Assembly (NCBI GenBank): GCA_963740155.1
Contig: CAVUDE010000004.1
Span: 33,454 to 97,453 of the forward strand
Direction of reading: 5' to 3'
Source of the DNA: an uncultured Flavobacteriaceae bacterium
GTDB lineage: Bacteria; Bacteroidota; Bacteroidia; Flavobacteriales; Flavobacteriaceae
Length of the DNA: 64,000 bases
How positions within the stretch are numbered: the stretch's first letter is position 1; the number at the start of each line of letters is the position of its first letter. Of the stretch, positions 7,974-64,000 are shown piece by piece. The translations under genes and the position numbers were made by a program. The notes under the pieces were generated by a model. The model was not told the DNA's origin and ran no database searches. It was given only the letters and a program-made list of their open reading frames with translations.

Positions 7974-9920
7974 TTAAACTTCAAATGTCTTTATGGTTTC
8001 GGCTACTTCTGCTTGTACCGCTTTCGCGAAAGCGTCCACACTCATAGCACCCAGGTCCTCACCACCATGTTTTCTTACAGAAACCGTACCATCGTTCTCC
8101 TCCTGCTCGCCCACGATAAGCATGTACGGCAGCTTGTTCATCTCTGCCTCGCGTATCTTCTTGCCCATGGTCTCTGCGCGATTGTCAATAGTACAGCGAA
8201 TTTCGTTATTTTCCAGAGCGTCAGCTACTTTTTTTGCATAATCTTCAAACTTTTCACTTAAAGATAGCACCGTACACTGCTCTGGCATCAACCACAGCGG
8301 GAAATTACCGCCTGTATGTTCCAGTAAAATTGCGATAAAGCGCTCCATGGAACCGAATGGCGCGCGGTGGATCATTACCGGCCTGTGTGACTCATTGTCA
8401 CTACCTTTATAGGAAAGCTCAAAACGCTCTGGCAGGTTATAATCCACCTGAATCGTTCCCAGCTGCCAGCTACGGCCCAGCGCATCTTTTACCATAAAGT
8501 CCAGTTTAGGACCATAAAAAGCCGCTTCTCCTTCCTCAATCACAAAGTTCAATCCCTTGTCCCGCGAGGCGCTGATGATTGCATTTTCTGCGATCTCCCA
8601 GTTTTCTGTATCCCCTATATATTTCTCTGGTTTCTCTGGATCGCGCACACTTACCTGTGCGGTAAAGTTCTCAAAACCCAGTGAGCCAAAAACATACATG
8701 ACCAGATCAATCACTTTCTTAAATTCCTCGTCCAGCTGTTCTGGCATACAGAAAATATGCGCATCATCCTGCGTAAATCCACGTACACGCGTCAGTCCAT
8801 GCAACTCCCCACTCTGCTCATACCGGTACACGGTACCGAATTCTGCAAAGCGTTTAGGCAAGTCTTTATAAGACCATTGAGCGCTTTTATAGATCTCGCA
8901 GTGGTGCGGGCAATTCATGGGCTTGAGCATGAACTCCTCGCCCTCGTTAGGTGTTTTGATGACCTGGAAAGAATCCTCACCGTATTTGGCAAAGTGTCCA
9001 GAGGTCACATATAATTCCTTGTTCCCTATATGAGGTGTCACCACCATCTCGTAGCCCGCCTTTTTCTGGGCAGCTTTCATGAAGTTCTCCAGTCGCTCGC
9101 GCAACGCGGCACCTTTAGGCAGCCACAATGGCAGCCCCTGCCCTACTTTCTGAGAAAAAGTAAATAATTGTAATTCCTTACCCAGCTTGCGATGATCGCG
9201 CTTTTTTGCCTCTTCCAGCAATTCTAGGTATTCCTTTAAGTCTTTTTGTTTGGGAAAAGAGATACCGTACACCCTAGTCAACTGCGGGTTGTTCTCGTCA
9301 CCGCGCCAGTAGGCACCGGCTATGCTCATGATCTTGACTGCTTTTACGATCCCAGTATTGGGAATGTGGCCACCACGGCATAGATCAGTAAAGGTATCGT
9401 GATCGCAAAAGGTGATATCACCATCGGTCAGGTTCTCGATGAGCTCGACCTTGAATTTGTTTTCTTCATTTTTATAGAAGTCCAGTGCATCTGCTTTAGA
9501 AACACTGCGCATTTTAAACTCGTGCTTGCCACGAGCAATTTCCAGCATGCGTTTCTCGATGGCAGGAATATCAGCCTCGGTGATGGATTTATCCTGAAAA
9601 TCTATGTCATAATAGAATCCGTTTTCTATGGATGGGCCTATGGTAAGCTTTGCCTGTGGGAACAAATCCTGGATGGCCTGCGCCATAATGTGGGACGTAC
9701 TGTGCCAGAAAGCCTGTTTTCCCTCATCGTCATTAAAAGTATAAAGGACAAGTTTGCCGTCTTCCTGCAAAGGTGTGGAAGTCTCTACTTTTTTGCCGAT
9801 ATAAGATGCACTTATTACATTGCGCGCCAGCCCGTGCGATATAGTCATCGCCACGTCCATGGGTGTGGAACCTTGTTCCATTTCTTTGATACTGCCATCT
9901 GGCAGGGTAATCTTTATCAT
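7974..9920 (-). CDS. thrS: Threonine--tRNA ligase
   Basis: TGS domain, HSTSHIMAQA, DLCRGGH, LKPMNCPHHC, GLTRVRGFTQDDAH, AFYGPKLD, IHRAPFGSMERF. Confidence 0.99.
   Translation of the reverse strand: MIKITLPDGSIKEMEQGSTPMDVAMTISHGLARNVISASYIGKKVETSTPLQEDGKLVLYTFNDDEGKQAFWHSTSHIMAQAIQDLFPQAKLTIGPSIENGFYYDIDFQDKSITEADIPAIEKRMLEIARGKHEFKMRSVSKADALDFYKNEENKFKVELIENLTDGDITFCDHDTFTDLCRGGHIPNTGIVKAVKIMSIAGAYWRGDENNPQLTRVYGISFPKQKDLKEYLELLEEAKKRDHRKLGKELQLFTFSQKVGQGLPLWLPKGAALRERLENFMKAAQKKAGYEMVVTPHIGNKELYVTSGHFAKYGEDSFQVIKTPNEGEEFMLKPMNCPHHCEIYKSAQWSYKDLPKRFAEFGTVYRYEQSGELHGLTRVRGFTQDDAHIFCMPEQLDEEFKKVIDLVMYVFGSLGFENFTAQVSVRDPEKPEKYIGDTENWEIAENAIISASRDKGLNFVIEEGEAAFYGPKLDFMVKDALGRSWQLGTIQVDYNLPERFELSYKGSDNESHRPVMIHRAPFGSMERFIAILLEHTGGNFPLWLMPEQCTVLSLSEKFEDYAKKVADALENNEIRCTIDNRAETMGKKIREAEMNKLPYMLIVGEQEENDGTVSVRKHGGEDLGAMSVDAFAKAVQAEVAETIKTFEV
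8018..8035. repeat. Iterated palindrome copy inside thrS (AFAKA frame)
   Basis: CCGCTTTCGCGAAAGCGT. Confidence 0.9.
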
Positions 9921-9942
9921 AACTACAACTTATGTTAGCCCG

Positions 9943-9950
9943 CAAAGGTA
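9943..9950 (-). promoter_or_regulatory. -7 promoter element for thrS
   Basis: TACCTTTG on the - strand, 22 bp upstream of the ATG. Confidence 0.6.
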
Positions 9951-10026
9951 CACGTTCCGCTATACCTGTTAAAGGCTGAATTTTATCAATTTTAATGTAG
10001 AAATTGTACTGATGATGGTGAGTATT

Positions 10027-10041
10027 ACGCTTTCGCGAAAG
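10027..10041. repeat. Iterated palindrome, imperfect intergenic copy
   Basis: ACGCTTTCGCGAAAG, followed by TGA instead of CGT. Confidence 0.75.
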
Positions 10042-10132
10042 TGAAATATGCACCGCAATCGCCTAAGCGCGAAACATTATAATCAGCGCTTTAAAAAACT
10101 TACCACATTATGTTGTCGCTCTGTAATTACTC

Positions 10133-10864
10133 TTACGACTGGACTCGCGCTGACCCAGTACTTTCCAGAAATCCCAATATAGAATCCTTGCGCGCACTCG
10201 CCACGGGAATCACTTCTTTGTGGATGGTAATTGATTTCCCGTCATAGGATTGCACCCGCTGCATATTCACGATATAGCGCCTGTGTACGTCTATGAAGAA
10301 ACTAGGCAGACTATAGACTTCTACTAGCTCTGTGAGCTTGTGACGTAAACGGTATTTATTTTCAACAGTAACAAGCCATACATAATTCTTATCTGACTGA
10401 AAATATAGAATGTCTGCCGGGTCTAGTTTTACAAGTTCCTTGCTGGTCTTGAACACGATTTTTTCCTCAGGCAGTGTATCCTGTACAACACGCTTACGGT
10501 TATTGAGCACCAGCTGGATATTTGTTATAAGCGTGGGTGCGTTGTAGGGTTTCATCAGGTAGGCGTCTGGTTGTATTTGCTGGACTTTTTCTAGAACCCT
10601 GGGACTTCCCAAAGCCGTGAGTATAAGAATCCCGGCGTCTGTTTCTTCCTTCAGTTTTTTGGCGAGCCACAATCCGTCTTTATTTCCCTTGAGGTTGATA
10701 TCCACGATCACCATGTCTGGTCTGGATGCTAGGATTGCGTCATAGGCCTCTTCTGCCCTGACGGCCGTACCGGCGAGCGCATAGCCCGCGTCTGAAATAT
10801 TCTTTATGATTGCCGCACGGGTAATGGCAAAATCCTCGACGATAAAAACAGATGCTTTACTCAT
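10133..10864 (-). CDS. LytTR-family response regulator
   Basis: REC domain (FIVED, VIVDINL, ILILTA, YLMKP) plus LytTR domain (ILYFQSDKNYV, FIDVHRRYIVN). True start is MSKAS at 10864. Confidence 0.93.
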   Translation of the reverse strand: MSKASVFIVEDFAITRAAIIKNISDAGYALAGTAVRAEEAYDAILASRPDMVIVDINLKGNKDGLWLAKKLKEETDAGILILTALGSPRVLEKVQQIQPDAYLMKPYNAPTLITNIQLVLNNRKRVVQDTLPEEKIVFKTSKELVKLDPADILYFQSDKNYVWLVTVENKYRLRHKLTELVEVYSLPSFFIDVHRRYIVNMQRVQSYDGKSITIHKEVIPVASARKDSILGFLESTGSARVQS

Positions 10865-12778
10865 GATGGTTGCGGTTAAAGGTAATCTGAATGGTGAAAT
10901 TTTCGGCATCCACAGGTAGTAAGGATCCTTCCAGCTCTTCAACCAGCAACCGGATGATCTGCAATCCCTTCCCTGTGTGACCTGTTGAGAAAACCTGGCC
11001 TGCATTGCTGGTTCCAGAATCGGCATAGGTGAAATAAATTATTCCCATATGGTCGTCTAGACTAATCCTCAGTCTATTGTCGCGCGGTGAGTCAATATGT
11101 TTGATGGAATTAGTCACCAGTTCTGTCACGATCAGTCCCAGGGTGACCGCGGTCTGGGTTTCAATAATGATCCCCGCGGCATCTACGGTGCCTTTCCACG
11201 TGGTGGTAGCATAGCGACCCAGTAAATGATCTACGAGCGTGGTGAGGTACGTGTCCAGATTTATCTGCTGGAAATCCTCTTGTTCATACAGCAATTCCTG
11301 CACGATGGCCATGCTTAGTATATAATTCTGCGTTTCAGAAAAAACCTCTACTTGAGCACCATTGATTAATTTTTCTTTTTGGAGTTCCAGCAATCCATTT
11401 ACGAGCTGTAGATTATTCTTGATCCTGTGATGGGTCTCATCCAGCATCACCGCTTTTTCCTTAAGGGCACGTTCAAGTTGATTTCTTTGAGAATATATTT
11501 TTTTGTTCCGCTTTCGCGAAAGCGTATACTGAAAACCCACCACAACAACTAGGATGACAACGGTTATAAGACCTACCACACTCCAGATAAGTTGCCTGCT
11601 TTTCTGCTCCAGGCGGTCTTTGCTGTCCTGTAACTGATCGCGGGTAGCATCTACGTCAAACTTTACGGCAGCCTCCTCTACCACCCTATTCTGAAGTGCC
11701 AGTTGCAGGCTATCGTTCAGGCGTTGATACGCACGATAGCAGGTAACCGCGGTTCTGTAGAGTCCAGCGATGAATAGATCATCGCCGCCAGTCGCTTCGC
11801 TGCCTGCGGTTCTCAGCACTGGGGAATCGCTCCTCGTAGATCCTTGCGGTATCGAGGTATTTTTTGGCCAAAACGACTTTCCCTCTATCAGGTAAAGTTC
11901 CGTGAGATTGAGATATGCCTGCCGGGTGATACGCGGCTGCCTAAAGACCTGGCTAGAAGAAAGTTCTTTGAGATAAATCTGTTCTGCGCCGCTCGTGTTG
12001 CCTTCCAGAATATTTAGACTTGCCAGATTAGACTCAACCACATTCAAAAAATTAATTTTTCTGATTTCCGGTAGCTCGTCATCCTGATCGATGGATTTTG
12101 TGAGTAGGTTTTTGGCAATTAGGTAGTTCCTGCGTGCCTCTTTAAGGTCGCCCTCTTTCTCATGCGTCAGCGCAATATTGTTGTACATGCTCGCCTGCAT
12201 AAAACTGTTTCCAGCCTCTTGATAATCTGCGGCCTGAATGTCAAATTGCTCCCTTGCTTGTGAATAGTTGGCAAGGTTATAATAGATCATACCCAGTTCA
12301 AGCCGGTAGTTTTTACCGCGGTCGTTTTTCACTTTTGGATAGCGATCATAATAATCTGTGAGCATGGGTGGCGTCCAGCTGGCGCTGGTAAAAACCCAAT
12401 CGATTGTAGGCAGAATAAAGCGACTCCACGGTGATGGCGGCACTCTCAGTTTCTAGAAAATCATTGTCTGACAACAGCTGGGTAGCGAGAGCAACGGTCT
12501 CCCGATCCCGCAGCCGGTTGTCATAAAACTCGAGTGGATCAATGTCGCTCGAGACCTTGTGCCTCACTACAATCACGCTCGCACTCCTTGATCACATTTT
12601 GAAAATAATTTGCATATCCCTCTGGCCATACCTCGCCACCATCGTCGTTCTTGATAGACTCATAAAACTCTGTTGCGGCTGTATAGGAAGTTGAATCAGG
12701 AACTGCCTGCTGGTAAAGATTGCCATAAGTTGCATGCCCAGTAAACAAAAAAAAGAAGATTAGCTGGATCAACCGCAT
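10857..12778 (-). CDS. TPR-sensor HisKA_2 histidine kinase, frameshifted (split over ORFs 12539-12778, 12346-12576 and 10857-12443)
   Basis: Signal peptide, TPR-like helices, TM segment, H-box LDETHHRIKNNLQ, N-box GLIVTELVTNSIKH, GKGLQII. Frame changes at ~12560 and ~12365. Confidence 0.8.
11508..11525. repeat. Iterated palindrome copy inside the histidine kinase (TLSRKR frame)
   Basis: CCGCTTTCGCGAAAGCGT. Confidence 0.9.
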
Positions 12779-13064
12779 TCTACAAATGTATTTGAAACTA
12801 AGAGATAAGGGTATATTTTTTTGTTGCTGAAGAAAGCTTATTGAATCCCATGAATTGAGAAATCATCTGAATAATAATGATGAGAATATTTTGTTAACGG
12901 TTGTGTTCATTGTCTTGTAAGAGAATTACCATACAGAGACAAAAACCAGATAACTTTCAAACAAATAGCTGCACCGACAAACTTGAAACAACGGCAAAAG
13001 AATTGTAGCTACAACGTTATAGACTAAATATTTTGGGAATAACTTATTTAGGCTGAATAGCCTG

Positions 13065-22100: not shown

Positions 22101-25100
22101 AGCAGTTTTACGGTCACCATCATTGACTCGCCCATGGCTGATGATCCTGCCGATGTGACGGCTTGTGATAACTATACCTTGCCAGTGCTGACCGTAGGAG
22201 AATATTTTACCCAAAGCAACGGCGCCGGTATACAGCTAAATGCTGGTGATGTAATTACGATGAGTCAAACGGTTTACGTTTTCGCGCAAAGCGGAACAAC
22301 ACCTAATTGTACTGATGAGAATGCTTTTGCGATAACAATTTCTGCCAGCCCGCAACTGGATCCTATTGCCGATTTGACGGTATGCAGTCCGTTTTTCCTA
22401 CCCGTAATTAATGGTATTGGACTTTCTGGTGGACAGCGTTATTATACGAATTCAGGTGGGTCAGGAACTTCATTTGCTGGTGGAGATCAAGTCCTAATCA
22501 GTGACTTTGCATCTTATCCAGTAACGCTCTACGCCTATGATGTGAATGGTATCTGCCCTGCCGAATCTAGTTTTGATTTGACCTTGCTGGATTGCAGCTT
22601 GAGCGTGGACGCGACTGCTAATTCAGATAGTTTGTGCGATAACGCCCTATCAACGGTCACGCTTACTGCAACACCTAATCCAGCAGCTGCGCAGGGTAGC
22701 TATAGCTATAGTTGGAACGAGTTGGGAAATACGGCCGTGCTGGGAACAAACCAAACTCTGGACGTGAATCCCAATGTAACGACCACTTATGAAGTAAGTA
22801 TAATCGATAGCGGGCTGCCATCCAGCAGCAATACTGCCAGCGATACGGTGACCGTGACGATAATCAATGCACCTGTGGCAGATGTGCTGGCTGATGTTGT
22901 AGAATGTGATTCTACCACTCTACCTGCGATAAGTTCAGGAAATTACTTTACGGCTAGCGGTGGAACGGGAACGGCACTAGCTGCCGGTGATGCAATAACC
23001 AGCAGTCAAGTGATTTTTATATACGCTGAGACTGGGACAACGCCCAACTGTAGTGATGAATCCAGCTTTAACATTCTGATCGATACAACTCCTGTGGCAG
23101 ATGCGCCCGCTGATGTCACCTCGTGCGATAATTATACCCTACCAGCTCTCACAACGGGTGATTACTTCACGCAATCTGGCGGTAGCGGAACCCAGCTCAA
23201 TGCTGGAGATGTGATCAACATCTCACAGACCTTGTTTGTCTATGCCGTCAATGCTGGCAATAATTCTTGTAGCAGTGAGAACAGCTTCAGTATTACAATC
23301 ACGTCCTCGCCACAAGTTGATGTTTTGGCAGATATGGCTGATTGTGACATGTTTGTCCTACCTAACTTGATGGTGGGTGATTATTTTACGCAAACCGGTG
23401 GAACGGGAACGCCACTTACAGCCGGTGATGTGATCACGGTAACCCAAACCATATTTATTTACGCCAGCAACGGTGGCGGTATCGTGAGCTGCGAGGACGA
23501 AAGCAGTTTTACCGTGACCATTTTTAATACGCCACAACTTGACACCCCGGCAGATGTAGATGCATGTGATAGTTTTGTACTGCCTGCCATTACCGGTTCA
23601 AACCTTTCCGGAAACGAGGCATATTTCACGCAGCCCAATGGGACAGGAAGTGCTTACAACGCAGGTGACGCCATCAACTTTGCAGACTTTGCCAGCTATC
23701 CAGTTACGCTATTTGTTTACGATGAGACGGCTACAACACCCAACTGTTCCGATGAATCCAGCTTTGCATTTACGATTACACAATCTCCAGATATTGATCC
23801 GCAGGCTGATCTGGGAGGTTGTGACACGGTGACGTTGCCAGTCATCACGGGAATTAATCTAACGGGCGGGCAGATGTATTATACGGCGCCTGGTGGTGGT
23901 GGTGTCGCTTTCGCGGAAGCGGACACAATACAATTTACAGATTTCACTACCTACCCCGTGACCTTTTATATCTATGATTCCAGTAGCACCACAACTGTAT
24001 GTGAAGATGAAGTCAGTTTCCAACTCACGATCGAGCCGACGCCAGTGCTGGATGCCGTGGCGGACGTGGAGGAATGTGAGTTTTTTATTCTGCCAGCCAT
24101 TTCGGGAAATAATCTCACCGGGAACCAAGCCTACTTTAGGGGCACAGGTGGAAATGGACGCCAATTTAATCCGGGAGATACCGTTACGGTGAGCGACTTT
24201 GCAACTTATCCAGTCACGCTATATGCTTTTGATAGTACGGGTAATCCTTTCAATTGTGCCGATGAGGTAAGTTTTGAATTGATCCTAAACCCAAATCCAG
24301 CTGCCATCGATATAGGCCTGCAGGAATACTGCGATGATGATGAAGATGGTCGTGAGCTTATCGATTTGAGTTTGCTGGACGGCATGATCGCTGATTTTGC
24401 TCCAGATGTCGTGGTAACCTATTACGATTTACTGACCGATGCAGAGAACAGCATCAATCCACTGAGTAGCGAAATCAATGTTCCATTAGGGAACAGAGAT
24501 CTAGTGGCGAGGGTCGATGACATAAATACGGGTTGTTTCTCAATCGTGGATCTTGCCTTGCGTGTCAATGAGATTCCCGTGGCGATGCTGGAAGAAATGT
24601 ACTTGCTTTGCCAGGATCAGGAGGGTAATATCACCGGTGCGCCTATTCTAGATACCGGACTTACGAGCCCAGATTTCGTATTTGAATGGTTTCTGGATCA
24701 GGGCAATGGTGACGTACTGCTTGCCAGTGAAACTGGTGGTAGCCTTGAGGCAATGCAGGCAGGTGTTTACACAGTAGTTGTTACCGATCCAATAACCGAG
24801 TGCTCCAATGTTTTGGTCAGCACCGTAGAGGCGAGGATTGATCCATTTGCATTTGGTGCCGAGAATTCTGGCAACAACATGCTCAACCAGCACGAAATCA
24901 GTGTCTTTGTAGCCAGCAATAACACCAGTACGAGATACGAGGTGAGGCTGGATGATGGGTTCTGGATAGAGCTGATCAACTCAAACCGCCGCTATAATTT
25001 TACTTTCAAGAATGTTCTAACAGGGAACGGTATCCATACCGTTCAATTCAGAAGTACTGACGGATGCTGGGAAGCAGAGAAAAAAGTAAGAACCGTGGGC

Positions 25101-26948: not shown

Positions 26949-27143
26949 ACAGTTGTGGTTGTAATGTTTTTTGGAAATTCCGCTTTTGCGAAACCTGCCT
27001 GTCGTTTCCTTGGCAGGCAGGGCGGGATAATCCACCATTCATTTTATACAAGGAGAAAACGAAACTGTAAATTGGGATCTGGTTTTGTGACCAAATAATT
27101 CTTTGATACATTCGTTTTCTTTACGATAATCAACTTATTTTAC

Positions 27144-28125: not shown

Positions 28126-30211
28126 TTAATTTTCTTTTTCTAAAATTCCCTGAAGTTTGGTTTTCTCTGATTCTGGAAAGGTATCTAGGAGAGTCGTGAT
28201 CTGATCACGGTATTGCTGATCCTTATAAAGGGCTTTAAGTGTATCCCGTGCGGTGCTATAAAATCTCCGCACATGATGGACACTCGCTTGCATAAGGTGC
28301 TGTAGGTTATGTGCGTCCATCGCGCGCAGGTTGAACAAATAATCAAATGCCGCGGTACGAGTGCGTGTATCGTATGATGGGTTTGTGTATCTGCGCAAAC
28401 GCTTGAGAAAAACCCGCTGATCGTCCCCTTTATAATCGGGAGAGTTGAGCGCCATCGTGTTCCACGCCATATCCAGACTGGGATCTATCTCATCCCACAG
28501 TTGTCGCGCATCCTGTAGAACCTGCTTTTTATCGATCGCTGAATCCCATAATGCATATAAAGCGCTCTCACGAGTTAGATATGATTTTTCGCTTAGCAAT
28601 TCTCGTAACAGGTCACGATTCATCTCGTTTACCTGGGTGGTCGTGAGAGCGATAAGCTGGTTGATTTGTGGATTCTCCAGTTGAAGCAGCATCTTTCAGT
28701 AAATCATATTTTCTGGGATCCTCGCGTGATTGCAGCTGGGAAATCATTTCCTTGACTAGCTCTACCTCTACTGGTTCTTCAAGCATGCTTTTATAATCAG
28801 GCAGAGCCATCTCAAAATTCTGCTCTCTCAAAGATATAAGATTGAAATAGGCTCGCATAAATCCATTCTTACGTAGGATGGCGATCGCATCCATGGTTGG
28901 GAATTCGGTTTTTGATAGCCAGTTATTTTTAAAGGTTTCAAGATTCTTGCCGCTTACTTTTTCAACAATAGCAAGAAACTCATCTGTTGTTGCGGTGACG
29001 TACTTGTACTGTTGTAGGTAGGTTTTTACGCTTTCGCGAAAGCGTGATTCCCCAACAAAATCTTTCAACGCATGCAACGCCCACGCGCCGTGCTGATAAA
29101 AAGTCAGTGAGCTGGCTGTTGGGTCAAGCAAGGACTTAGCGTCACCATTCAGGTTCTGGCGGTTCAGTGATTCTGCATGCTCGTACAGTTTTACCTGGAA
29201 ATAGGCATCGCCGTGTAAATCACGTTCTGCCAGCAATGCATAATAGGTAGCAAATCCCTCCTGCAGCCAGTGGTGTTTACCAGACTGGGCAGTGACCAGA
29301 TCGCCAAACCACTGGTGTGCCATCTCATGCGCGTTTACAGTCACGTAGTTGCGATCGTTTACAGCAAGACTGTCCACCATAAATTGATCATTAAAAATCG
29401 TGGCGGTCGTATTCTCCATCCCCGAATACAAAAAATCCTTGACCGGAATCTGCTTGTACTTGATCCATGGATATTCCACGCCTATCTCCTTTTCCAAAAA
29501 ATCAAAAATCTGCTGGGTATGTTTATAGGTGGTGGCAATCTTATCAGCATCTTCTGGATAATAAAAATGAGTAATTTCCTTATCAGAATCTGACTGCATC
29601 GTCACTGATTTATAGTCACCTGCTACAATAGCTACCAGATAGCTGGACATGGGATTTTGCATGGTGTAAGAATAGATATTGTCATTTTTACTCACCAGTT
29701 TTCCATTTGCAATCCCTGTCATTCCCACTGGAGCCTCTACGGTAATATTCCAAATGATCTTATCATTTACATCGTCCAGACTGGGCAGCCAGTTGCTGGT
29801 GTATTTACCCTGTCCCTGCGTCCAGGCTTGTTCCCATTTGCCATCTGAGTCTGCATCGATGAAGTAAAAAGCTTTGGTAGGTCTGGAAATAAACTGAATG
29901 GTCGTTTTATGAGTTGTACCCGCTTTGAGTGGTTTACGTAAAGTTATGTGCTTGCCGTTGTAGGGATCTGTCATCGCCTGCCCATCCAGCAGTATTTTGT
30001 AATTGACAAGGTTTTTTGCATTCAAGAGGACTGAATCCACGTCCCGAATCACGTCAAATCTATAAGTCACGGTGCCCGTAACTTCCATGATTTGATCAGA
30101 CAAAGTAATCTGAACCTCAGCCGATTTGAAATTAACGAGATCGATCTGATCGACAGGATTCTGAGCGTGAACAGTAGAATAAAAAAATACAAAACAGAAA
30201 AAATACTTCAT
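28126..30211 (-). CDS. M1-family aminopeptidase, frameshifted at ~28690
   Basis: YSGMEN exopeptidase motif, HEMAH…WLQEGFATY zinc motif, FYQHGAWALH. The C-terminal helical domain continues in ORF 28126-28692. Confidence 0.88.
29028..29045. repeat. Iterated palindrome, exact copy in the aminopeptidase (RFRES frame)
   Basis: ACGCTTTCGCGAAAGCGT. Confidence 0.95.
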
Positions 30212-31885: not shown

Positions 31886-33562
31886 CTATTCTAATACTTC
31901 AATTATCGGATTCCCAGTGGCGCTGCTGGGCATGGCTATTCTCAACAAGCTTGAAATAGTCTGGGCGATATCTGTTGCTTCCGTACGTTTAAATGTGTAA
32001 CCGGGATTAATTCCTTTTCCGTAAAACAATAGCGGTACGTGTGTATCGTAGGTATTTGAACTACCATGGGTAGTTCCCTTGCGGCCATAGCTGATCACTG
32101 CCGGCTCGAGCACGTACACCAGATCGCCGCTACGTTTCTGATGAAATCCATTTGCAATTAAACTTCCCGTTGCGTCTGAAACAGATCCACTCACGAGATC
32201 ATCTCGCTTATACACCTTATCCACGTAATCTAACTCAAGCATTTTTCCAGCGAGAAACTGCTGGACTTCTGAGGATGTAATTTCATTGATGGCCAGCTTG
32301 CGTTTATCCAGAAAAACCTGCTGGTTAGAAATATCTTCTACCATACTGCTGTCCCGATATTTGGAAGCTAGCATACTGTTGAGCGTATCTTTTAAATCAC
32401 GAGAATTGAAATAACCCGCATTAATCCTACGGCTAGTGAGATAGGCAGGATTCTCTACCGCACCGTGATCTGCCGTTAGAAAAACGGTGTAGTTTCCGTC
32501 CCCTACTTGATCATCTAGCTTTTTAAGCAATCTCGCGATTTCACGGTCTAGGCGCAGGTAGGTATCCTCAATCTCAACACTATTCACACCGTACTGATGC
32601 CCCACATAATCCGTACTGGAAAAACTTACAGTGAGAAAATCTGTGGTTTGGTCTTTTCCCAGTTCTTCATTCTCGATAGCTTGTAGAGCAAAATCCGTAA
32701 GAATGCTGTTGCCGTAGGGTGTTGATTTCAGTAGGCTGTAATTCCTATTTTCCTGAGCCAGTTCTTTTAAGTCATAGGGAAAACTCGCGCTGTCCCTACC
32801 TTTAAGGATATACTCAAAATCATTTACGTCGCTGCCACTTTCCAAGTAAGAACCAATAGGATACAATGTGTTCCATTCTTTTAAATAGGATTGAACAGTC
32901 TCACCCTGATTGAAATCAACCACCCATTGCGGTAGCTCTTCCATGTAGAACGTGCTGGTAATGAAAACGCCCTCATCGTCGCCCTTGAACCAGTAGGCAG
33001 CATCTGCTGCATGACCAGCGGGAAGAATGGCGCCACGGTCTTTCAGGCTTAAACCTATGACCTTAGACCTGCCCTGCGTGTGCAGTTCCAACTCATCGGT
33101 CACCGTAGTGGACAACACATTTCTAGGCGACATTCTACCATCGTCTGAAGTCGTACCCACAGGTTGTGCCAGCGTATCACTGGCATTGTAAATGCTTTTT
33201 CCAGCAAATTTATCGTACCAGTCGTTACCTATTATACCGTGATTCATTGGTGTGGTTCCCGTATAGATTGAGGCATGACCGGGTGCCGTATAGGTAGGCA
33301 CAAAATTAAAATGATGGTTACGTGCCTCAAACCCGTCGCGCATCAATCGTTTAAATCCATCAGATCCATATCGATCGTAGAATCTCGTGAGATAATCGTA
33401 ACGCATCTGATCCACCACTATTCCCACGACCAGCCTAGGCCTGTCCAGCTTTTCAGGAAAATTTGTGTATTCTCTTGTGTTGTTGTCACGCTTTCGCGAA
33501 AGCGTACCCTCACAACCAGCTATAATAACTACTAGAATCAATAGAAAGACACCTCTCCTCAT
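31886..33562 (-). CDS. pafA: Alkaline phosphatase PafA-family lipoprotein
   Basis: VGIVVDQMRYDY, nucleophile region PTYTAPGHA, SLKDRGAILPAGH, SFSSTDYVGH, TADHG, GTTHGS. Confidence 0.92.
   Translation of the reverse strand: MRRGVFLLILVVIIAGCEGTLSRKRDNNTREYTNFPEKLDRPRLVVGIVVDQMRYDYLTRFYDRYGSDGFKRLMRDGFEARNHHFNFVPTYTAPGHASIYTGTTPMNHGIIGNDWYDKFAGKSIYNASDTLAQPVGTTSDDGRMSPRNVLSTTVTDELELHTQGRSKVIGLSLKDRGAILPAGHAADAAYWFKGDDEGVFITSTFYMEELPQWVVDFNQGETVQSYLKEWNTLYPIGSYLESGSDVNDFEYILKGRDSASFPYDLKELAQENRNYSLLKSTPYGNSILTDFALQAIENEELGKDQTTDFLTVSFSSTDYVGHQYGVNSVEIEDTYLRLDREIARLLKKLDDQVGDGNYTVFLTADHGAVENPAYLTSRRINAGYFNSRDLKDTLNSMLASKYRDSSMVEDISNQQVFLDKRKLAINEITSSEVQQFLAGKMLELDYVDKVYKRDDLVSGSVSDATGSLIANGFHQKRSGDLVYVLEPAVISYGRKGTTHGSSNTYDTHVPLLFYGKGINPGYTFKRTEATDIAQTISSLLRIAMPSSATGNPIIEVLE
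33488..33505. repeat. Iterated palindrome, exact copy in pafA (TLSRKR)
   Basis: ACGCTTTCGCGAAAGCGT. Confidence 0.95.
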
Positions 33563-38773: not shown

Positions 38774-38791
38774 ACGCTTTCGCGAAAGCGT
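38774..38791. repeat. Iterated palindrome, exact intergenic copy 5 bp after the moxR stop
   Basis: ACGCTTTCGCGAAAGCGT. Confidence 0.95.
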
Positions 38792-39752: not shown

Positions 39753-41150
39753 TTATTTGGTCCAGTTAGTTTCAAAATCACAGTCATCAAATTGACCGTC
39801 CACCTTAACGTAAGTGTCCTTCAATTTTTTTACCTGCCATTTCTCGACTGTTTCAATCTGTTTGTTGCGTGTTGCAAGATCCTTGATCTTCAGAAAATCG
39901 CGCTGATAATCTGCCTTGTGGTCTTCAACCTTGTCGTTCAAATAAATCAATTTGAAATAAATCTTGTCTGGATCCCGCTCATCACGTTCTTGCAATATAC
40001 CGCTCACATCGCCCTTTTCCATAAACTGAACCTGTGAGGCTAATTGTGTAGGCAACTTTACTACTTCAAAGAACTTACCACCGGTCGATGGATTAGTAAG
40101 CTGGCCGCCGTTAGGTGCAGTTTCTTCCTCGGTGCTTATTTGTTTTGCCGCTTCTTCAAAGGTGATTTCCTTCAATACGATCTTATCGCGCATCTTATCC
40201 AGTTCTTCCCGTGCATCGTTAAGCTGGGAAGTAGAAATAAATGGCTTTAGCAAAATATGGCGCACATCTCTTATCTGTCCACGTACATCATCCACCAGCA
40301 GTATATGCCATCCAAAACTGGTCTCAAACGGCTCGCTGATCTCACCTTCCTGAAGACTGAATGCCTGATCCTTGAACTCCTTTACAAAAGGATCACCACG
40401 TCTCAGAGAGATAATACCCCCCTGACGCTCAGTAACTATATCATCAGAATACAGTGTGGCTTTTGCAGCAAAGTTCCCACCGTTTTCCAGAACATCTGTT
40501 CTAAAGCCATTAAGCTTATCGATCGTATCTTGAATTGCATCTTCCGTAGGTTTTGGCTCAACAACGATCTGTGAAATATTCACTTCTGTACCAAAAATGG
40601 GACGTTCTTCCTCTGGAATATTATAGAAGAACTGGCGTACCTCTTCTGGAGTGATTTCTACGGCATCAGTCAGTCGTTGCTGCATGCGTTCTGCCAGCAG
40701 CTGTTCTCTATCCAGGATCATCAAATCCTGACGCAATTCTTCTATGCTGCTGCGATTATAGTAATCTGCAACTGCCTTGTCATTCCCTATTTTACTCTTG
40801 AAATAGTTGATCTTGCGCTCTGTAAAACTGGCAACTTCCTCGTCACTCACGTTGATACTATCCTGAATGGCATGGTGTGCAAACATCTTGTTTTGCAACA
40901 TACCTTCCACAAGTTCACACCGCGTGAGATCTAGTCCACCCTCGCGACCCATGTTCTGCACCTCGCGCACAATGTCGCTATCCAGAATCACATAATCCCC
41001 TATCACGCCTGCCACACCGTCGATGGGCACTCTTTCTTTGTTAATGTTGCGTGTTGAATCTATCCCGACTATCGTGGATGAGTAGGTTTGTGCTGTTCCC
41101 GCTTTCGCGAAAGCTAACACAACAACCATCACCATTAATCTATTTATCAT
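39753..41150 (-). CDS. SurA-like peptidyl-prolyl isomerase/chaperone
   Basis: SurA N-domain (IDGVAGVIG…ILDSD) and two parvulin domains (FAAKATLYSDD…GG; FETSFGWHI). Confidence 0.88.
   Translation of the reverse strand: MINRLMVMVVVLAFAKAGTAQTYSSTIVGIDSTRNINKERVPIDGVAGVIGDYVILDSDIVREVQNMGREGGLDLTRCELVEGMLQNKMFAHHAIQDSINVSDEEVASFTERKINYFKSKIGNDKAVADYYNRSSIEELRQDLMILDREQLLAERMQQRLTDAVEITPEEVRQFFYNIPEEERPIFGTEVNISQIVVEPKPTEDAIQDTIDKLNGFRTDVLENGGNFAAKATLYSDDIVTERQGGIISLRRGDPFVKEFKDQAFSLQEGEISEPFETSFGWHILLVDDVRGQIRDVRHILLKPFISTSQLNDAREELDKMRDKIVLKEITFEEAAKQISTEEETAPNGGQLTNPSTGGKFFEVVKLPTQLASQVQFMEKGDVSGILQERDERDPDKIYFKLIYLNDKVEDHKADYQRDFLKIKDLATRNKQIETVEKWQVKKLKDTYVKVDGQFDDCDFETNWTK
41100..41114. 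repeat. Iterated palindrome core in the SurA-like signal peptide (AFAKA)
   Basis: CGCTTTCGCGAAAGC. Confidence 0.85.
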
Positions 41151-46477: not shown

Positions 46478-46495
46478 ACGCTTTCGCGAAAGCGT
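46478..46495. repeat. Iterated palindrome, exact intergenic copy
   Basis: ACGCTTTCGCGAAAGCGT. Confidence 0.95.
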
Positions 46496-46677: not shown

Positions 46678-46695
46678 ACGCTTTCGCGAAAGCGT
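46678..46695. repeat. Iterated palindrome, exact intergenic copy 200 bp from the previous one
   Basis: ACGCTTTCGCGAAAGCGT. Confidence 0.95.
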
Positions 46696-46896: not shown

Positions 46897-48123
46897 GGCT
46901 TAATAGACAAAATGGTTGGTAAAAACACTAGTAACACCTGCTATTACTAGCTTTGGTGTAAATCAAAGGCTTTGAATAAAAAAAATGCAGTTTTTGTGGC
47001 AGCCGCATCACTCACAAATATGGTGTCAGGTCAGGTAAGCAACGCTATAGATGCTGGGCCTGCAAAAGGGTATTTACCGGTGGTTTGCGGATCGAGGCGT
47101 CCCATCTTTGGGAAGAGTACACAAAGGGAAAACAAACCTACCTGCAACTTGCCCAATAGTATGGCCTGTCCATAAGAACCATCCAGCGTAGGATTGATAG
47201 CCATCAGGTCGAGGAACATATAGCGGTTCCCAGAAACGTAATCGTCCTCATGGATAGCACCTATTGGGGAAGAAGCTTCGGGCTGATGCTTTTCAAGGAT
47301 GCCTATACCGGAGAAAATATCAAGTGGTATTACCTAAGGTCGGAGACAAACCTGTTATATCGCAAGGGTATCGCCGAACTCAAATCAAGGGGCTTTACCA
47401 TTGATGCCATTGTCTGTGACGGAAGAAAGGGACTGGTCAATTCATTTGGACAGATACCGGTTCAGCTCTGTCAGTTCCATCAGGTTGCCACCATAAGGAG
47501 ATATATTACCAAGAACCCCAAGATGCCTGCTGCCATTGCCTTAAAGGAGCATGCCGCGCTGCTGAAACATACCGACAGGGAGTCTTTCCAGGGTGGTCTG
47601 GAACTCTGGCGGGAAAGGTGGGATGGTTTCCTGGATGAGCGTACGGTGGATCCAGAGACCGGAAAGAGCCACTACACCCACAAATGACTGAGAAGCGCCT
47701 ACAGAAGCCTGAACACGAACATGGAATGGCTCTTTACGTGGTATGACCATCCAGAACTGGATATACCCAATACCACGAACATGATAGATGGTCACTTTTC
47801 AGACCTGAAGAACAAGCTCAGAAACCATAACGGTTTGAGTATGAAAAGAAAAATAAAGTTCATCGATGAGTTTTTAAAGGCATGAGGCCTTTTGAAAACA
47901 ACAAAAAGGGAAGCCTGAAAAGGCTTCCCTGAATGACGTTTTCGTCAGGCATCCAATGTATCCCTGGCAAGTTGCTCTCCAGCAGGGCCTGCTTCCGTTT
48001 AATTGGACGGGACAAGATAGAATTGGATAGGATAACAAACAACTACTGTTGACAAACAGACCAACCATTTTGTCCACTTGAAAATAATTACTCGAAATCA
48101 CCAACCATTTTGTCCATTACACC
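46897..48123 (+). mobile_element. IS256-family (Zn-finger variant) insertion sequence, 1,227 bp, with 8-bp target site duplication
   Basis: Left IR GGCTTAATAGACAAAATGGTTGGT; right IR (reverse complement) GGTGTAATGGACAAAATGGTTGGT. Direct repeat GGAAGTTT at 46889-46896 and 48124-48131. Confidence 0.9.
46972..47885 (+). pseudogene. Transposase with an A8 frameshift and two nonsense codons
   Basis: TTG AAT A8 then CSFC…CWAC Zn finger; TAG at ~47158; LMDSTYW, AIVCDG, CQFHQ; TGA at 47685; then …PNTTNMIDGHFSDLK…EFLKA*. Confidence 0.85.
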
Positions 48124-48180
48124 GGAAGTTTATATTGAACCCTATGAAAAGCGAAAGCGTAAACCTGAAAGCATGGTAAT

Positions 48181-55677: not shown

Positions 55678-55701
55678 ATTACGCTTTCGCGAAAGCGTAA
55701 T
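55678..55701. repeat. Iterated palindrome extended to 24 bp, intergenic upstream of susC
   Basis: ATTACGCTTTCGCGAAAGCGTAAT. Confidence 0.95.
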
Positions 55702-56725: not shown

Positions 56726-56741
56726 GATATGTTACTTGTTG

Positions 56742-59105: not shown

Positions 59106-59108
59106 GTT

Positions 59109-60422: not shown

Positions 60423-62242
60423 CGTTTATCTTGTTTGTAGGTAAGTCCATATCCCATCGGATAAAGCGGTTCTATGCTATTGTCCCAGTAATTAGGCCCA
60501 AAAACACCCGAATAATCCTCAACACTTTCAGGCCAGCTATGTGGCAATTTTCCGGTGAAATTATATTTGCCAAAAAGTACTTCTGCAACTCCATCACCCT
60601 CTGAACCTGGCAGCCATGCACAAACAAATGCATCGCTCGTTTTGATATCTTCAGTAACGACCAGTGGGCGCCCAGAAATTATGACGGTCACAACTGGGAT
60701 GCCCTTATCTTGGTAAGATTGAATGTAATTTTTATGCTTTCGCGAAAGCGTAAACCCATATCTCTTCACCTCATGATCTATATCGCCAAAAAATTCTGCA
60801 TACGGTGTTTCTCCCACCACCACTATCGCAACGTCTGCATCATCAACTACTTGACTTGCGTCTGAATCATAGATTACCTCTGCATTGGAATGTGCCTTTA
60901 TCCCGTCCAGAATGCTGGTCGCGCCCTCGTAGGATTCTGTGACACCTTGCCAGCGTATCGTCCAGCCACCAGACTGTAATCCTGAGTTATCTGCATGTTC
61001 ACCCACGACGGCAATTTTTTTGACATCATTTTTAATCGGTAATGCCGACTCGTTTTTGAGCAACACAAGCGATTTCCTGACAGCCTCTCTCGCGACCGCA
61101 CGGTGTTTGTTACTTCCCACACTGGCCACAAGAGTCGAGTCTGCATACGGGTTTCCAAAAAGACCCATCTTGAATTTTTGCCGCAAAATGCGACGTACGG
61201 CATCGTCTATTCTAGCTGGTTGTATGGAATCAGTTTCCGCACCTCTTTTAACGCCCTCTTGAAAAACATCCATATCGCCATCTACCGCCATGACCATATC
61301 AACTCCGGCGTTAACGATTTCATTGCGGCCAAATCTCGTGTAGCCTTTCCAATCTGTCATCACGATGCCATCAAAGCCAAAACTGTTCTTCAACGTATCT
61401 GTAATGAACTCCTTGTAGGCGTGCATTTTATAACCGTTCAGCGTATTGAATGATGCCATTACCGCTCCCACATCTTCCCTGATGGCGGCCTTGTAGGGAG
61501 GAAATAAATACTTATTCAGAATCTCAGGGTTGAGATTTGCATCGCCGCCCTCGCGACCATAATCCGTTGCGCCGTCGCCTATAAAATGTTTTGCCGTTGC
61601 AACCACAGAAGTAGGATCTGACAGATCACCTTGCAATCCAGCCACGCTAGCGGCGGTCATCTGGGTGGTCAATTCCACATCCTCAGAAAATGCCTCGTAC
61701 ACCCTGCCCCAGCGCTCATTAAATGGCACGGCTGCGCACGGTGAGAACACCCAGGTGAATCCTGTGGCTCTAGATTCCATTGCCGTAATTTTTGCAGCTC
61801 TTTTTACCAGTTCCACATCACCAGTAGCTCCCATCCCGATGTTGTGCGGGAAGACCGTTGCCCCCTCAAACGTATTCTGACCATGAACAGCATCCACACC
61901 AAATAGCAGGGGAATGCCCAGTCTGGTTGACATTGCCTCGCGCTGTAGTGAGTCAAACCGCTTTTGCCAGTCTGCCGCGGTCTTTCCTGGATTGCCGCCA
62001 TTTGTGTGGATAACACTGCCTATCAATTTTGAGCGAATGATGGTATCACTGTCTATATCCCAGAAGTGCCGGATCTGCGTCATCTGGCCTATCTTCTCTT
62101 CTAGTGTCATTATATCTAGCAATGAATCCACTTTCTTCTCTATGATCGCATTTTCATCGACTATAGGAATAGCAGCGGGTTCCTTACAGCTGCTAGCTAT
62201 AAGAATACATAAACCGATGAATGGCAAAAAAAGATTTCTCAT
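60419..62242 (-). CDS. GH3 beta-glucosidase lipoprotein
   Basis: MTLEEKIGQMTQ, PLLFGVDAVHG, WGRVYE, AKHFIGDG, VMTDW nucleophile, SLVLLKN, WLPGSEG. Confidence 0.93.
   Translation of the reverse strand: MRNLFLPFIGLCILIASSCKEPAAIPIVDENAIIEKKVDSLLDIMTLEEKIGQMTQIRHFWDIDSDTIIRSKLIGSVIHTNGGNPGKTAADWQKRFDSLQREAMSTRLGIPLLFGVDAVHGQNTFEGATVFPHNIGMGATGDVELVKRAAKITAMESRATGFTWVFSPCAAVPFNERWGRVYEAFSEDVELTTQMTAASVAGLQGDLSDPTSVVATAKHFIGDGATDYGREGGDANLNPEILNKYLFPPYKAAIREDVGAVMASFNTLNGYKMHAYKEFITDTLKNSFGFDGIVMTDWKGYTRFGRNEIVNAGVDMVMAVDGDMDVFQEGVKRGAETDSIQPARIDDAVRRILRQKFKMGLFGNPYADSTLVASVGSNKHRAVAREAVRKSLVLLKNESALPIKNDVKKIAVVGEHADNSGLQSGGWTIRWQGVTESYEGATSILDGIKAHSNAEVIYDSDASQVVDDADVAIVVVGETPYAEFFGDIDHEVKRYGFTLSRKHKNYIQSYQDKGIPVVTVIISGRPLVVTEDIKTSDAFVCAWLPGSEGDGVAEVLFGKYNFTGKLPHSWPESVEDYSGVFGPNYWDNSIEPLYPMGYGLTYKQDKR
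60734..60751. repeat. Iterated palindrome copy in the GH3 gene (TLSRKH)
   Basis: ATGCTTTCGCGAAAGCGT. Confidence 0.9.
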
Positions 62243-64000
62243 CTAATAATGAACTTCAATTAATTGGATTTTCCCGCTTCTGTCAAAAATGGATGGACTG
62301 ATGCTTTTACCTAGATTCAATCCCATGACCGTTTCAACCGCGCCATTAGAGCGCTTCAGCACAATCTGGTTTTTGCCGTTGTGATGGTAGATGACTGGAA
62401 TCTGGCAATAGGTAAATGCTACAGATCCAGACGGAACCTCTAAGGATTGCGCTTGATCATCAATATCATAATATTCAAACACCGCGTCAGACTTGAGCAA
62501 CTCATCATCCCTGAGCAATTGCGGATTAAAGACAATGAAACCCTTGCGCACGTAAACTCCCAGTTCCATAAATCTGGATAGGATATCCTCTTTTACCTGC
62601 CCAGTCATTCCCGGTTGTTGCGCACCTTTATTGCCCGGCGTATGTGAGTATGGATCCGTAGGGAAAGCCCCGTAAAGTTCTGGCGACTTGTGGACGCCTA
62701 TTCCCTCATTCATCTCATAATAGTGTTCCAGTAGCTTGCCTATCAGCACCTCATCATCTGTGGAATTGATGGCTTTTACGCAGTTTTCCATGACGGCAAG
62801 TACAAGTTTTGACACCATGTGCCAGTAAATCGATCCCAGCCCCTCGTAACCGAAGAATGTCCCAGACCTACCCGTAAATGCCTTGTGATTGAATAAGGTT
62901 TCAAAATCTGCCAGCAGCTGGCTTTTCTCTTTCTTCACCAGACCCTTATATTTTTCTGGTAGGCTTTCTAATGCATGTTCTAGACTATCGGCATTATTAA
63001 ATTTACCATTGTAGTGGTAATTGCCATCTGCGTCTGTTTCAATCACCTGCTCATTTCCATGATCTACCAGTTTACCTAGCAGGGTAGATGATTCTACCAT
63101 GGATGGTGGAATGTTGTTCTTATCAACAAACCTCGCCAGATCCTTATCTGGATACAGCAAATAACTATATTGATCCTCACGGAAGAGCTTACTGGATTTA
63201 AGACCATTCATGACTTCCAGCGAGTCCTGTAGCGAGATCGCACCAGAACTTAAGACGGCGACCTGTCCCTCCAGCATTTCAGGCAGGTGGCTCACAACTG
63301 TCTCATCGTTCTTAATGGTAATCAGATTGTAGGAATGATAAAGGTTATCATCTCTTCTGTTTGCCTTGATGGTGTGTTTCAGGTGCTTTTTGACCGTCGC
63401 GATATATCCCTGCAATTGCTGCTTGCCTACAGTCTTCTGGTTTCCAGAAAATCCATGTGTGTACACCCGTGTGCGATAGCGATCCCCAGCTTTACCTAGG
63501 TGATCCATGATGGTTTTGCGGCTTTGGTTTGTACGCTTTCGCGAAAGCGTGCCCTCATCATCCCTCAACACTTCTGTAATGCTTTGTAACATTTCAAAAA
63601 GTTCTACGGATACCTCTACTTCTGGGAGTTGTTTATCTTGAATCAATTCATCAAAAAAGTGCATGAATCGGTAGAGGTAGTTGAGCGTTACCATGGAAAC
63701 ACCGTTGCCCACCAGTGCGTTGTTTGCGTCATTCCATTCTGGTCGCTGGGTGTTCATCCATATGCCGGCTTCTGGGATGAAGTTTGAAATTTTGGCGAGT
63801 GTGGTGACCAGGATTTTTTCGATAAAACTGACGCGGTAAATGTCATTTTGCACGGTCATAAGTGCACCATCTGCCCCGATTTGCTCGCGGCGATCCCGCA
63901 CTTGCTGATCCAGCTCATGGTCAAAGTCGATGGTATCCTGTGGATCGCTCACTATATCCTCATAGGACTTGATTTTATAAGGAACGTTTGCGTACACAAA
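62243..64000 (-). CDS. Probable GH149 beta-1,3-glucan phosphorylase, C-terminal part (5' end outside the window)
   Basis: RPEWNDANNALVG, LEGQVAVLSSG, YEGLGSIYWHMVSKL, YGAFPTDPYSHTP, QQPGMTGQVKEDI. I recognise these as GH149-like from memory and PUL context; not database-verified. Confidence 0.7.
   Translation of the reverse strand, partial: FVYANVPYKIKSYEDIVSDPQDTIDFDHELDQQVRDRREQIGADGALMTVQNDIYRVSFIEKILVTTLAKISNFIPEAGIWMNTQRPEWNDANNALVGNGVSMVTLNYLYRFMHFFDELIQDKQLPEVEVSVELFEMLQSITEVLRDDEGTLSRKRTNQSRKTIMDHLGKAGDRYRTRVYTHGFSGNQKTVGKQQLQGYIATVKKHLKHTIKANRRDDNLYHSYNLITIKNDETVVSHLPEMLEGQVAVLSSGAISLQDSLEVMNGLKSSKLFREDQYSYLLYPDKDLARFVDKNNIPPSMVESSTLLGKLVDHGNEQVIETDADGNYHYNGKFNNADSLEHALESLPEKYKGLVKKEKSQLLADFETLFNHKAFTGRSGTFFGYEGLGSIYWHMVSKLVLAVMENCVKAINSTDDEVLIGKLLEHYYEMNEGIGVHKSPELYGAFPTDPYSHTPGNKGAQQPGMTGQVKEDILSRFMELGVYVRKGFIVFNPQLLRDDELLKSDAVFEYYDIDDQAQSLEVPSGSVAFTYCQIPVIYHHNGKNQIVLKRSNGAVETVMGLNLGKSISPSIFDRSGKIQLIEVHY
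63533..63550. repeat. Iterated palindrome, exact copy in the GH149-like gene (TLSRKR)
   Basis: ACGCTTTCGCGAAAGCGT. Confidence 0.95.

Follow-up and report, generated by a model that had tools for sequence, protein, structure and literature searches.

Hyper-abundant genomic words are rare, and the DNA uptake sequences (DUS) of the Neisseriaceae, the uptake signal sequences (USS) of the Pasteurellaceae, Chi and the cyanobacterial palindrome HIP1 (GCGATCGC) have each illuminated how self DNA is discriminated from foreign DNA. HIP1 is conserved and quasi-periodic, and it has lately been linked to transformation (PMC5861425, PMC13756078, bioRxiv 10.1101/2024.09.10.611283). A large share of uptake sequences sits inside coding sequences (CDS), where the frame and the peptide tolerate them (PMC2817400); among DUS the share inside CDS is 34%, compared with 2% for the NTS hairpins of Neisseria (PMC11893778). 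Here we describe the 14-bp palindrome GCTTTCGCGAAAGC, found in a 64-kb stretch of DNA from an uncultured marine bacterium of the Flavobacteriaceae. This stretch, which we call the window, is C4:33454-97453 of a 3.32-Mb, 7-contig assembly (genome code G000). We take its genus to be Nonlabens, on the basis of one named relative. An earlier note, made from the letters of the window, had proposed that the palindrome is a genome-wide signal of the HIP1/DUS type. We found no description of the 14-mer or the 16-mer in the literature; keyword searches gave nothing on flavobacteria, and the word is absent from the Nonlabens dokdonensis genome paper.

Like HIP1, this element is a perfect palindrome that is hyper-abundant across its clade, lies both in genes and between them, is distributed non-randomly and is kept at orthologous sites past its neutral neighbours (at the few sites compared). 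It differs in length (14–16 bp against 8 bp) and in density (about one per 4.7 kb against up to one per gene). HIP1 has a periodicity of 10–90 kb, whereas the rule here is short-range, with a mode of 3–5 kb. HIP1 is cyanobacterial and comes with conserved orphan methyltransferases (DmtA/DmtC), whereas the present motif belongs to the Bacteroidota, where it is restricted to 3 of 302 genera of one family, and none of the six methyltransferases of this genome is conserved.

The likeness to DUS and USS lies in the hundreds to thousands of exact copies, in their origin by substitution, in the many copies inside CDS, in a low-information flank preference shared by coding and non-coding copies, in even spacing and in absence from what appears to be recently acquired DNA. 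In contrast, DUS and USS are asymmetric words of 9–12 nt, whose role in uptake and whose pilin receptors have been experimentally demonstrated. With Chi (RecBCD/AddAB), which occurs about once per 4.5–5 kb, the motif shares its density, a mostly genic location and, on the reading proposed below, the marking of self DNA. Chi, however, is 5–8 nt long, asymmetric and co-oriented with replication, whereas a perfect palindrome of 14–16 bp has no orientation.

Results

The window contains 11 exact 14-mer cores, 7 exact 18-mers (ACGCTTTCGCGAAAGCGT) and 3 one-mismatch 18-mers, compared with 0.02 cores and 0.00 18-mers in dinucleotide-preserving shuffles of the same sequence. Across the whole genome we counted 677 exact cores, 549 16-mers and 151 18-mers, with every contig represented. 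Markov models of orders 1–5, trained with the motif masked, predicted at most 0.014 cores. The genome-wide excess anticipated by the earlier note thus exists (more than 4x10^4-fold over the Markov expectation), and the copies, which are uniformly spread, are not confined to the region covered by the window. Nearly all TTCGCGAA octamers of the genome fall in the motif (677 of 719), and the mismatch spectrum is almost all-or-none: there are 677 exact copies, 59 with one mismatch (49 of them transitions) and 29 with two. Farther classes exceed an order-3 simulation only slightly (144 against ∼74 at three mismatches and 898 against ∼785 at four).

The predominance of transitions among the one-off variants, the CpG-rich palindromes in the centre of the motif and the presence of two C5 methyltransferase genes in the genome would fit a by-product of biased repair or methylation. 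In this explanation, which follows the very-short-patch repair idea for HIP1, a methyltransferase and a mismatch endonuclease acting at TCGCGA or CGCG would convert near-matches into the motif. However, TCGCGA outside the motif is close to expectation (536 observed, ∼600 estimated from base composition), the regular spacing described below is left unexplained and, to our knowledge, no repair system has a specificity of 14 bp. The genus was searched with one concatenated query that joined the genome's six DNA methyltransferases (two C5, one N4/N6, two Dam-class and one Eco57I-type). No member of this set is conserved within the genus; of the 24 congeners, 7 gave no match at all and yet carry 445–752 copies. 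A conserved methyltransferase tied to the motif is therefore rejected for these six enzymes, methyl-directed repair, which had been put forward earlier as a candidate process, is unlikely, and we regard the by-product explanation as very improbable.

Three of the in-gene sites, those in threonyl-tRNA synthetase (ThrRS), in the GH3 protein and in the M1 peptidase, were aligned with orthologues from within the genus and from beyond it. In all three alignments, outgroups included, the motif site was free of gaps. The ThrRS peptide DAFAKA stands opposite E[AS]FA[EQN]I of some 15 other genera; at this site the exact motif is present in Dokdonia ponticola, half of the motif in another Dokdonia and none in ‘Flavobacteria bacterium BBFL7’. 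In GH3, TLSRKH is found opposite FLSDKD in the outgroup and opposite TLSKTH and TLTDVH in two congeners. In the M1 peptidase, four outgroups have (D)(F/Y)(K/R)xx(I/V) where RFRESV stands. The earlier note had left it to such alignments to decide between substitution and a six-codon insertion, and had held that in-frame insertions relative to orthologues would recast the motif as an RPE-like mobile element. Since no gap was found at any of the three sites, homologous codons have been replaced and none inserted, and an RPE- or MITE-type insertion (Rickettsia palindromic element; miniature inverted-repeat transposable element) is ruled out.

Conservation at orthologous sites was looked at in few places. 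The GH3 DNA CGCTTTCGCGAAAGCAT is identical in four Nonlabens species that share 64–74% amino-acid identity, and nearby synonymous sites have diverged. For the copy at window position 63533, a counterpart stands at the matching position of the adjacent gene in three other Nonlabens species (L002, L003 and L005). We read GCTTTCGCGAAAGC as a tag that is made and kept up in place rather than inserted, and assign this reading a probability of about 0.85. In the genome search, the GH3 orthologues of L003 (G012) and L004 (G020) each contained one in-frame TAA; these may be pseudogenes or sequencing errors.

A mobile or once-mobile short palindromic element that spreads by insertion, such as a repetitive extragenic palindrome (REP) with its Y1 transposase (RAYT), a MITE or an RPE-like element, would account for the high copy number, for the palindromic form, for a consensus that reaches into the flanks and for the existence of expanded variants with inserts. 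It is contradicted by the constant length at the three in-gene sites, the absence of target-site duplications, the very few decayed copies, a spacing that is regular and not clustered, and flanks that are not complementary (see below). The motif is also not confined to extragenic DNA, as REPs mostly are, and it has no consistent Y1 transposase: PF01797 (Y1/RAYT) found no match in G003, G008, G015 and G019 and a marginal one (22.9 bits) in G000, yet 478–776 copies occur in these genomes. A RAYT/REP origin is rejected on this patchy distribution, which also makes RAYT, one of the gene families suggested in the earlier note, an unlikely partner. We consider the mobile-element explanation to be largely refuted.

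The copies in the window, together with near-copies and split copies, are collected in Table 1. A Pfam search confirmed the gene identities given there for the peptide-encoding copies, and showed the motif within real Pfam domains with the reading frame kept. The coordinates that the earlier note had given for seven exact and three one-mismatch 18-mers and for 11 cores were all reproduced, and the peptides that it had named were re-derived in the genes to which it had assigned them (TLSRKR in the histidine kinase, the PafA-like protein and the 62243- protein, TLSRKH in GH3, AFAKA in ThrRS and the SurA-like protein, and RFRES in M1). Of its two near-matches, the one at 10027 stands, with a one-mismatch core from 10029, and the one placed at 23906 was off by one. 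In the region 28126-30211 of the window (minus strand), the open reading frame (ORF) of the M1 aminopeptidase encodes 532 amino acids, whereas the open frame has ∼700–736 in 23 of 24 congeners examined. An overlapping ORF of 188 amino acids at 28126-28692 may be the detached C-terminal part of this aminopeptidase, whether by a frameshift, by a split of the gene or by an error in the assembly.

Table 1. Copies, near-copies and split copies of the palindrome in the window (window coordinates).
Feature	Position	Strand	Context
Type B split palindrome	4136..4177	+	CCGCTTTC, 24-nt GC-rich hairpin insert, GCGAAAGCGT
Palindrome copy, exact 16-mer, one-mismatch 18-mer	8018..8035		thrS; encodes D-AFAKA-V, residues 630-634 of 648, near C-terminus
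Near-copy GCTTTCGCGAAAGT	10027..10044		spacer upstream of thrS; one-mismatch core from 10029
One-mismatch 18-mer	11508..11525		histidine-kinase gene (10857-12443, minus strand); encodes TLSRKR immediately past hydrophobic segment
One-mismatch core GCTTTCGCGGAAGC	23907..23920		gene of 3076-aa adhesin
One-mismatch palindrome split behind GAAA by 28-nt hairpin	26980..27025	+	CCTGCCTG...CAGGCAGG
Exact 18-mer	29028..29045		within Peptidase_M1 domain (M1 aminopeptidase); encodes RFRES
Exact 18-mer	33488..33505		PafA-like phosphodiesterase gene; encodes TLSRKR, right behind lipobox cysteine
Exact 18-mer	38774..38791		intergenic
Exact 14-mer core	41101..41114		signal peptide of SurA-like peptidyl-prolyl isomerase; encodes AFAKA
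Exact 18-mer	46478..46495		intergenic; with the 46678 copy, one of few close pairs
Exact 18-mer	46678..46695		intergenic; partner of the 46478 copy
Degenerate type A expanded palindrome	48116..48162	+	right half CGAAAGCGTAA retained; insert GGAAGTTTATATTGAACCCTATGAAAAG recognisable
Exact 18-mer	55681..55698		intergenic
One-mismatch 18-mer	60734..60751		GH3 C-terminal domain; encodes TLSRKH
Exact 18-mer	63533..63550		large gene 62243-; encodes TLSRKR

The motif is confined to a narrow set of genera. All 25 genomes of the genus carry 312–858 cores, whereas 16 other families of the order have none. A survey of the 16-mer in 401 Flavobacteriaceae genomes from 302 genera revealed only three rich genera, the genus of the window (498–592 copies), g284 (549) and g264 (154), with all others at 12 or fewer; Dokdonia belongs to the three. 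Among named genomes, Dokdonia sp. Asnod2-E02 has 899 copies, Dokdonia ponticola 841 and BBFL7 552; the Mangrovimonas, Salegentibacter, Tenacibaculum and Muriicola genomes have none. In g264 (genome G298) the 154 exact 16-mers compare with 542 copies within two mismatches, and among the copies listed the mismatches are almost all outermost, with the C/G at -1 and +1 relaxed. Because the listed mismatches lie nearly all at the edges, the invariant unit is the 14-mer, and the edge preference drifts between genera. A fossil, decaying motif in g264 is thus rejected, as the 14-mer is still maintained and only its edge is relaxed.

Other genera with 3–16 copies often have them grouped within 10–100 kb. 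In four such stretches, 4–6 copies lie within 11–90 kb at host-like spacing (G141:C1:2826985-2837735, G155:C1:2540754-2562673, G380:C1:119473-147445 and G056:C18:82640-174392), and these clusters in otherwise motif-free genera look like DNA imported from motif-rich donors. The 16-mer also occurs in ∼30 contigs of IMG/VR. One of these, L142 (IMGVR_UViG_3300039191_000376), is a phage structural module encoding portal, protease, major head, adaptor and tape measure proteins; it has copies at 4579, 9059 and 14113, which are 4.5–5 kb apart, and one of them lies inside the protease gene. Isolated phages in INPHARED gave chance matches only, in a search that sees matches of ∼17 nt or more.

Genes were called with a crude caller that over-extends starts, and the genic fractions are therefore approximate. 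By these calls, 375 of the 677 copies (55%) lie in ORFs, compared with 83% of random points; 227 of the 375 are far from gene ends and 78 fall no more than 90 nt from the start of the longest open frame. The motif is read as AFAKA in 184 of the in-ORF copies, as RFRES in 96 and as TLSRK in 95. Intergenic copies prefer divergent spacers and avoid convergent ones, and they often lie 10–30 nt downstream of a stop codon.

Along the chromosome, the copies follow a spacing rule. At a density of about one per 4.7 kb, the spacing has a coefficient of variation of 0.555 on one large contig and 0.584 on the other, compared with 0.99 ± 0.06 for random placement. Gaps below 1 kb (17 against 126 expected) and of 1–2 kb (53 against 102) are depleted, the mode is 3–5 kb and gaps above 16 kb are also few (8 against 24 expected). 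Each 100-kb bin of every large contig holds 15–24 copies, with a Fano factor of 0.26, and at this bin size no gradient of copy density between ori and ter is visible. One of the two largest gaps, G000:C1:276587-302353 (outside the window), is a 25.8-kb stretch without the motif whose GC content is 37.6%, compared with 43–44% for the genome; it is probably a recently acquired, foreign-looking island.

Spacing this uniform on all contigs is what would be expected if the palindrome were a site of chromosome architecture, a spaced anchor or barrier used by a nucleoid or topology protein or by cruciform extrusion, with selection acting on the spacing itself. The 14–16-bp palindrome resembles the sites of parS, Noc and SlmA in form, its flanks alternate A-rich and C-rich stretches, and the study of HIP1 periodicity argued for nucleoid structure (PMC5861425). 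In contrast, the known families of nucleoid sites comprise tens of sites with an ori/ter bias, and not 677 evenly binned copies, and the sites of architectural proteins are normally degenerate, whereas these are letter-perfect. A crude motif scan found one ParB-like gene only, and the motif is present in the phage module as well. We judge this explanation to be rather unlikely.

We examined the sequence context of the palindrome. A logo of all copies gave the extended motif TT[A/C]CGCTTTCGCGAAAGCG[T/G]AA, and beyond it ∼30 nt on each side are biased in composition, although the sequence itself is not conserved. On the top strand the left flank is T/G-rich and C-poor, and the right flank is A/C-rich and G-poor (2–10% G), with A high at +3/4, at +10-13 (peak at +10) and at +22-31, and a peak of C at +15 to +18. 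This profile is the same in the 227 mid-genic and in 302 intergenic copies; thus, it is part of the signal and not of the genomic context. Within genes, the bias is translated into TLSRKR preceded by hydrophobic and followed by polar residues, which explains why copies are found where signal peptides and transmembrane segments end.

Within a copy, the flanks are independent of each other, which would be expected if the half-sites are equivalent. Complementarity between mirror positions past +4 is no higher than in chimeric controls, and at +5 it is lower (z = -5). An extended hairpin with a long stem is rejected, because there is no excess complementarity past +4 and the minimum free energy is not below that of the chimeric controls. 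The flanks, being non-complementary, behave as two independent half-site flanks rather than as a long stem. This symmetric, non-complementary bias, in which each strand is G/T-rich 5′ and A/C-rich 3′ of the palindrome, is new in this analysis.

Orphan half-sites led to ∼65 further copies in the genome that keep both halves and the usual flanks and hold a structured insert of 24–35 nt in the centre. They are of three types: type A (TTACGCTTTC-CCGATAGGGAAGTTTATGCTGAGCCTGCCGAAGTA-CGAAAGCGTAA, ∼47 copies), type B (10 copies) and type C (8 copies). A three-helix model of 25 type A copies is 91% paired, with five pairs that vary on both sides, values that 6–7 of 500 shuffles reach; support for this predicted fold is modest. 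Rfam gave no match in the window or in six loci with expanded copies, and type A as a cis-regulatory RNA is rejected because its orientation to neighbouring genes is only weakly biased. Three expanded copies were observed in tandem, 200 nt apart, at G000:C5:870596/870798/870997. Hairpin units called SDR, nested in other repeats of Nostocaceae, are said to have been described by Elhai et al. in 2008. These are likewise very short hairpin units inserted exactly at the centres of palindromic repeats, as in types A, B and C; the likeness is limited to the nested inserts, and the GIY-YIG link described below was seen here.

Split copies of type A occupy positions of the spacing lattice. A median of 2.7 kb separates them from the closest plain copy, compared with 1.3 kb for random points, and plain-to-plain intervals that span a type A copy measure 8.2 kb, compared with the usual 4.1 kb. 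Type A copies are therefore lattice palindromes with an invaded centre, which implies that the centre acts as a hairpin tip in vivo. Since split copies keep their lattice positions, the signal possibly tolerates an insert at the tip and is possibly read in folded form.

What is conserved in the insert is a hairpin module, with a variable stem of 2–5 bp and the loop CTGAGC-N3-4-YCGAAG, of which the genome has 104 copies. This module also accompanies small nuclease-like genes. Three intact GIY-YIG genes, all small and single-domain, are present in the genome, and their proteins of 88–106 amino acids match PF01541 only. GIY-YIG gene #2 (C1:122818-123081) has 11 module copies within 500 nt, in an array on both sides of the gene (G000:C1:122287-123564), and gene #1 (C5:714511-714828) has an inverted module pair just 3′ of it (C5:714852-714925). 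The module also flanks orthologous GIY-YIG genes in other Nonlabens and in two other, palindrome-free families of the order (loci L160, L162-L164 and L167). The link between the nested module and the GIY-YIG genes is new in this analysis. At gene #3 (C1:402125-402409) a different repeat (TGCGATACTGACCTGCGTCAGCATGACAGTG) stands on both sides (region C1:401825-402606), and outside these repeats two palindromes 768 nt apart, one of the few close pairs, bracket the gene, perhaps through synteny. GIY-YIG sequences interrupted by in-frame stops are also present at C7:477164-477424 and C1:344907-345182.

The Ssn single-strand DNases are encoded by small single-domain GIY-YIG genes that have a hairpin repeat of their own, NTS/SRM, on either side (Chenal et al. 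2025, PMC11893778), and the genes and module described here appear, as judged by sequence, to have the same architecture. We found no description of an Ssn/SRM-like system in Flavobacteriales. The repeat around the GIY-YIG genes is in this case the CTGAGC...CGAAG module, which meets the palindrome only by nesting in its centre; the apparent correspondence with Ssn/SRM thus concerns the module and not the plain palindrome. The palindrome and the NTS consensus do have in common the 10-mer CGCGAAAGCG (PMC11893778), and both are hairpin-forming and present in hundreds of copies.

These likenesses raise the question of whether the palindrome is itself a relative of Neisseria NTS/SRM, that is, a target which an enzyme specific for both structure and sequence, for example an Ssn-type GIY-YIG nuclease, reads in folded form on single-stranded DNA during transformation, conjugation or replication. 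As single-stranded DNA, a 22-mer of the motif is predicted to fold into a 9-bp stem with a CGCG loop at -7.3 kcal/mol. The three intact GIY-YIG genes, the nesting of their module in the centre of ∼65 palindromes, where a hairpin tip would be, the lattice positions of the split copies and the two palindromes around gene #3 are in line with such a role. However, NTS/SRM repeats are ∼98% intergenic, oriented by asymmetric flanks and clustered (PMC11893778), whereas the palindrome is ∼45–55% genic, symmetric and even. A general association of palindromes with GIY-YIG genes was not seen, with 17 palindromes against ∼18 expected in ∼86 kb near these genes, and GIY-YIG homologues with the module are also present in two families that have no palindrome. 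As an explanation of the palindrome we consider this nuclease target distinctly unlikely.

Discussion

The abundance of the palindrome, its restriction to 3 of 302 genera, its origin by substitution and its conservation at orthologous sites support the HIP1/DUS-type signal that the earlier note had proposed; its function we infer. We are confident that the palindrome, together with the ∼30 nt of flank preference on each side, is a clade-specific recognition tag on chromosomal DNA. Copies arise in place by base substitution, wherever AFAKA, RFRES or TLSRK[R/H] and the flank composition are tolerated, and are then kept free of mismatches by a force specific to the sequence, which may be selection or biased transmission. 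The same force would favour about one copy per 3–6 kb, as a second copy nearby would bring no benefit.

The function that we favour is that of a self-DNA tag in uptake or recombination, read by a protein, and we put its probability at about 0.45. In one version, the tag would promote preferential uptake or integration of conspecific DNA, as DUS and USS do and as has been proposed for HIP1. In the other, it would act in the manner of Chi but, as a palindrome, would do so whichever way it faces. The 25.8-kb low-GC stretch without the motif is as expected of foreign DNA, and all 25 genomes of the genus have an intact ComEC (PF03772).

Several observations count against a self-DNA tag. ComEC is found in 11 of 16 motif-free families as well and so does not co-vary with the motif; its presence therefore permits an uptake role without supporting it. 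No reader protein was identified, and we know of no documented natural transformation in Nonlabens or Dokdonia. Uptake sequences are asymmetric words of 9–12 nt and Chi sites are oriented words of 5–8 nt; a perfect palindrome of 14–16 bp resembles neither. Copies split by an insert of 24–35 nt stay on the lattice, which is awkward for a compact dimer that reads the centre of the duplex and hints at a hairpin. Finally, the motif occurs in a phage structural module, spaced much as in the host, and a drive based purely on uptake predicts otherwise unless the phage is temperate.

A variant of the self-DNA tag would accommodate the split copies. If the tag, instead of being read as duplex, were recognised as a hairpin formed in single-stranded or extruded DNA, it would be an orientation-free, ruler-spaced signal for recombination or uptake. 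The base of the stem (TTACGC.../...GCGTAA) would be recognised and the tip free to vary, so that copies with a nested hairpin would still count, and the G/T-rich strand 5′ of every copy could be a preferred loading zone for RecA or DprA. The composition of this strand would match that preferred by RecA. We regard this variant as rather unlikely. If true, it would define a new class of self-DNA signal, joining the hyper-abundant words (HIP1/DUS/Chi) with the world of hairpin repeats and GIY-YIG nucleases (Ssn).

As a self-DNA tag, the palindrome would be the first such word in the Bacteroidota, and the longest and most letter-perfect of the known cases. Its spacing rule, one copy per 3–6 kb and almost never two within 1 kb, is sharp enough for testing, and cultivable strains of Dokdonia and Nonlabens exist. 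With three motif-rich genera among ∼300 motif-free relatives, it is feasible to look for the reader protein by phylogenetic profiling. The split copies show, in addition, that the tiny hairpin modules associated with GIY-YIG genes home to palindrome tips. The motif could also serve to trace horizontal transfer out of the motif-rich genera.

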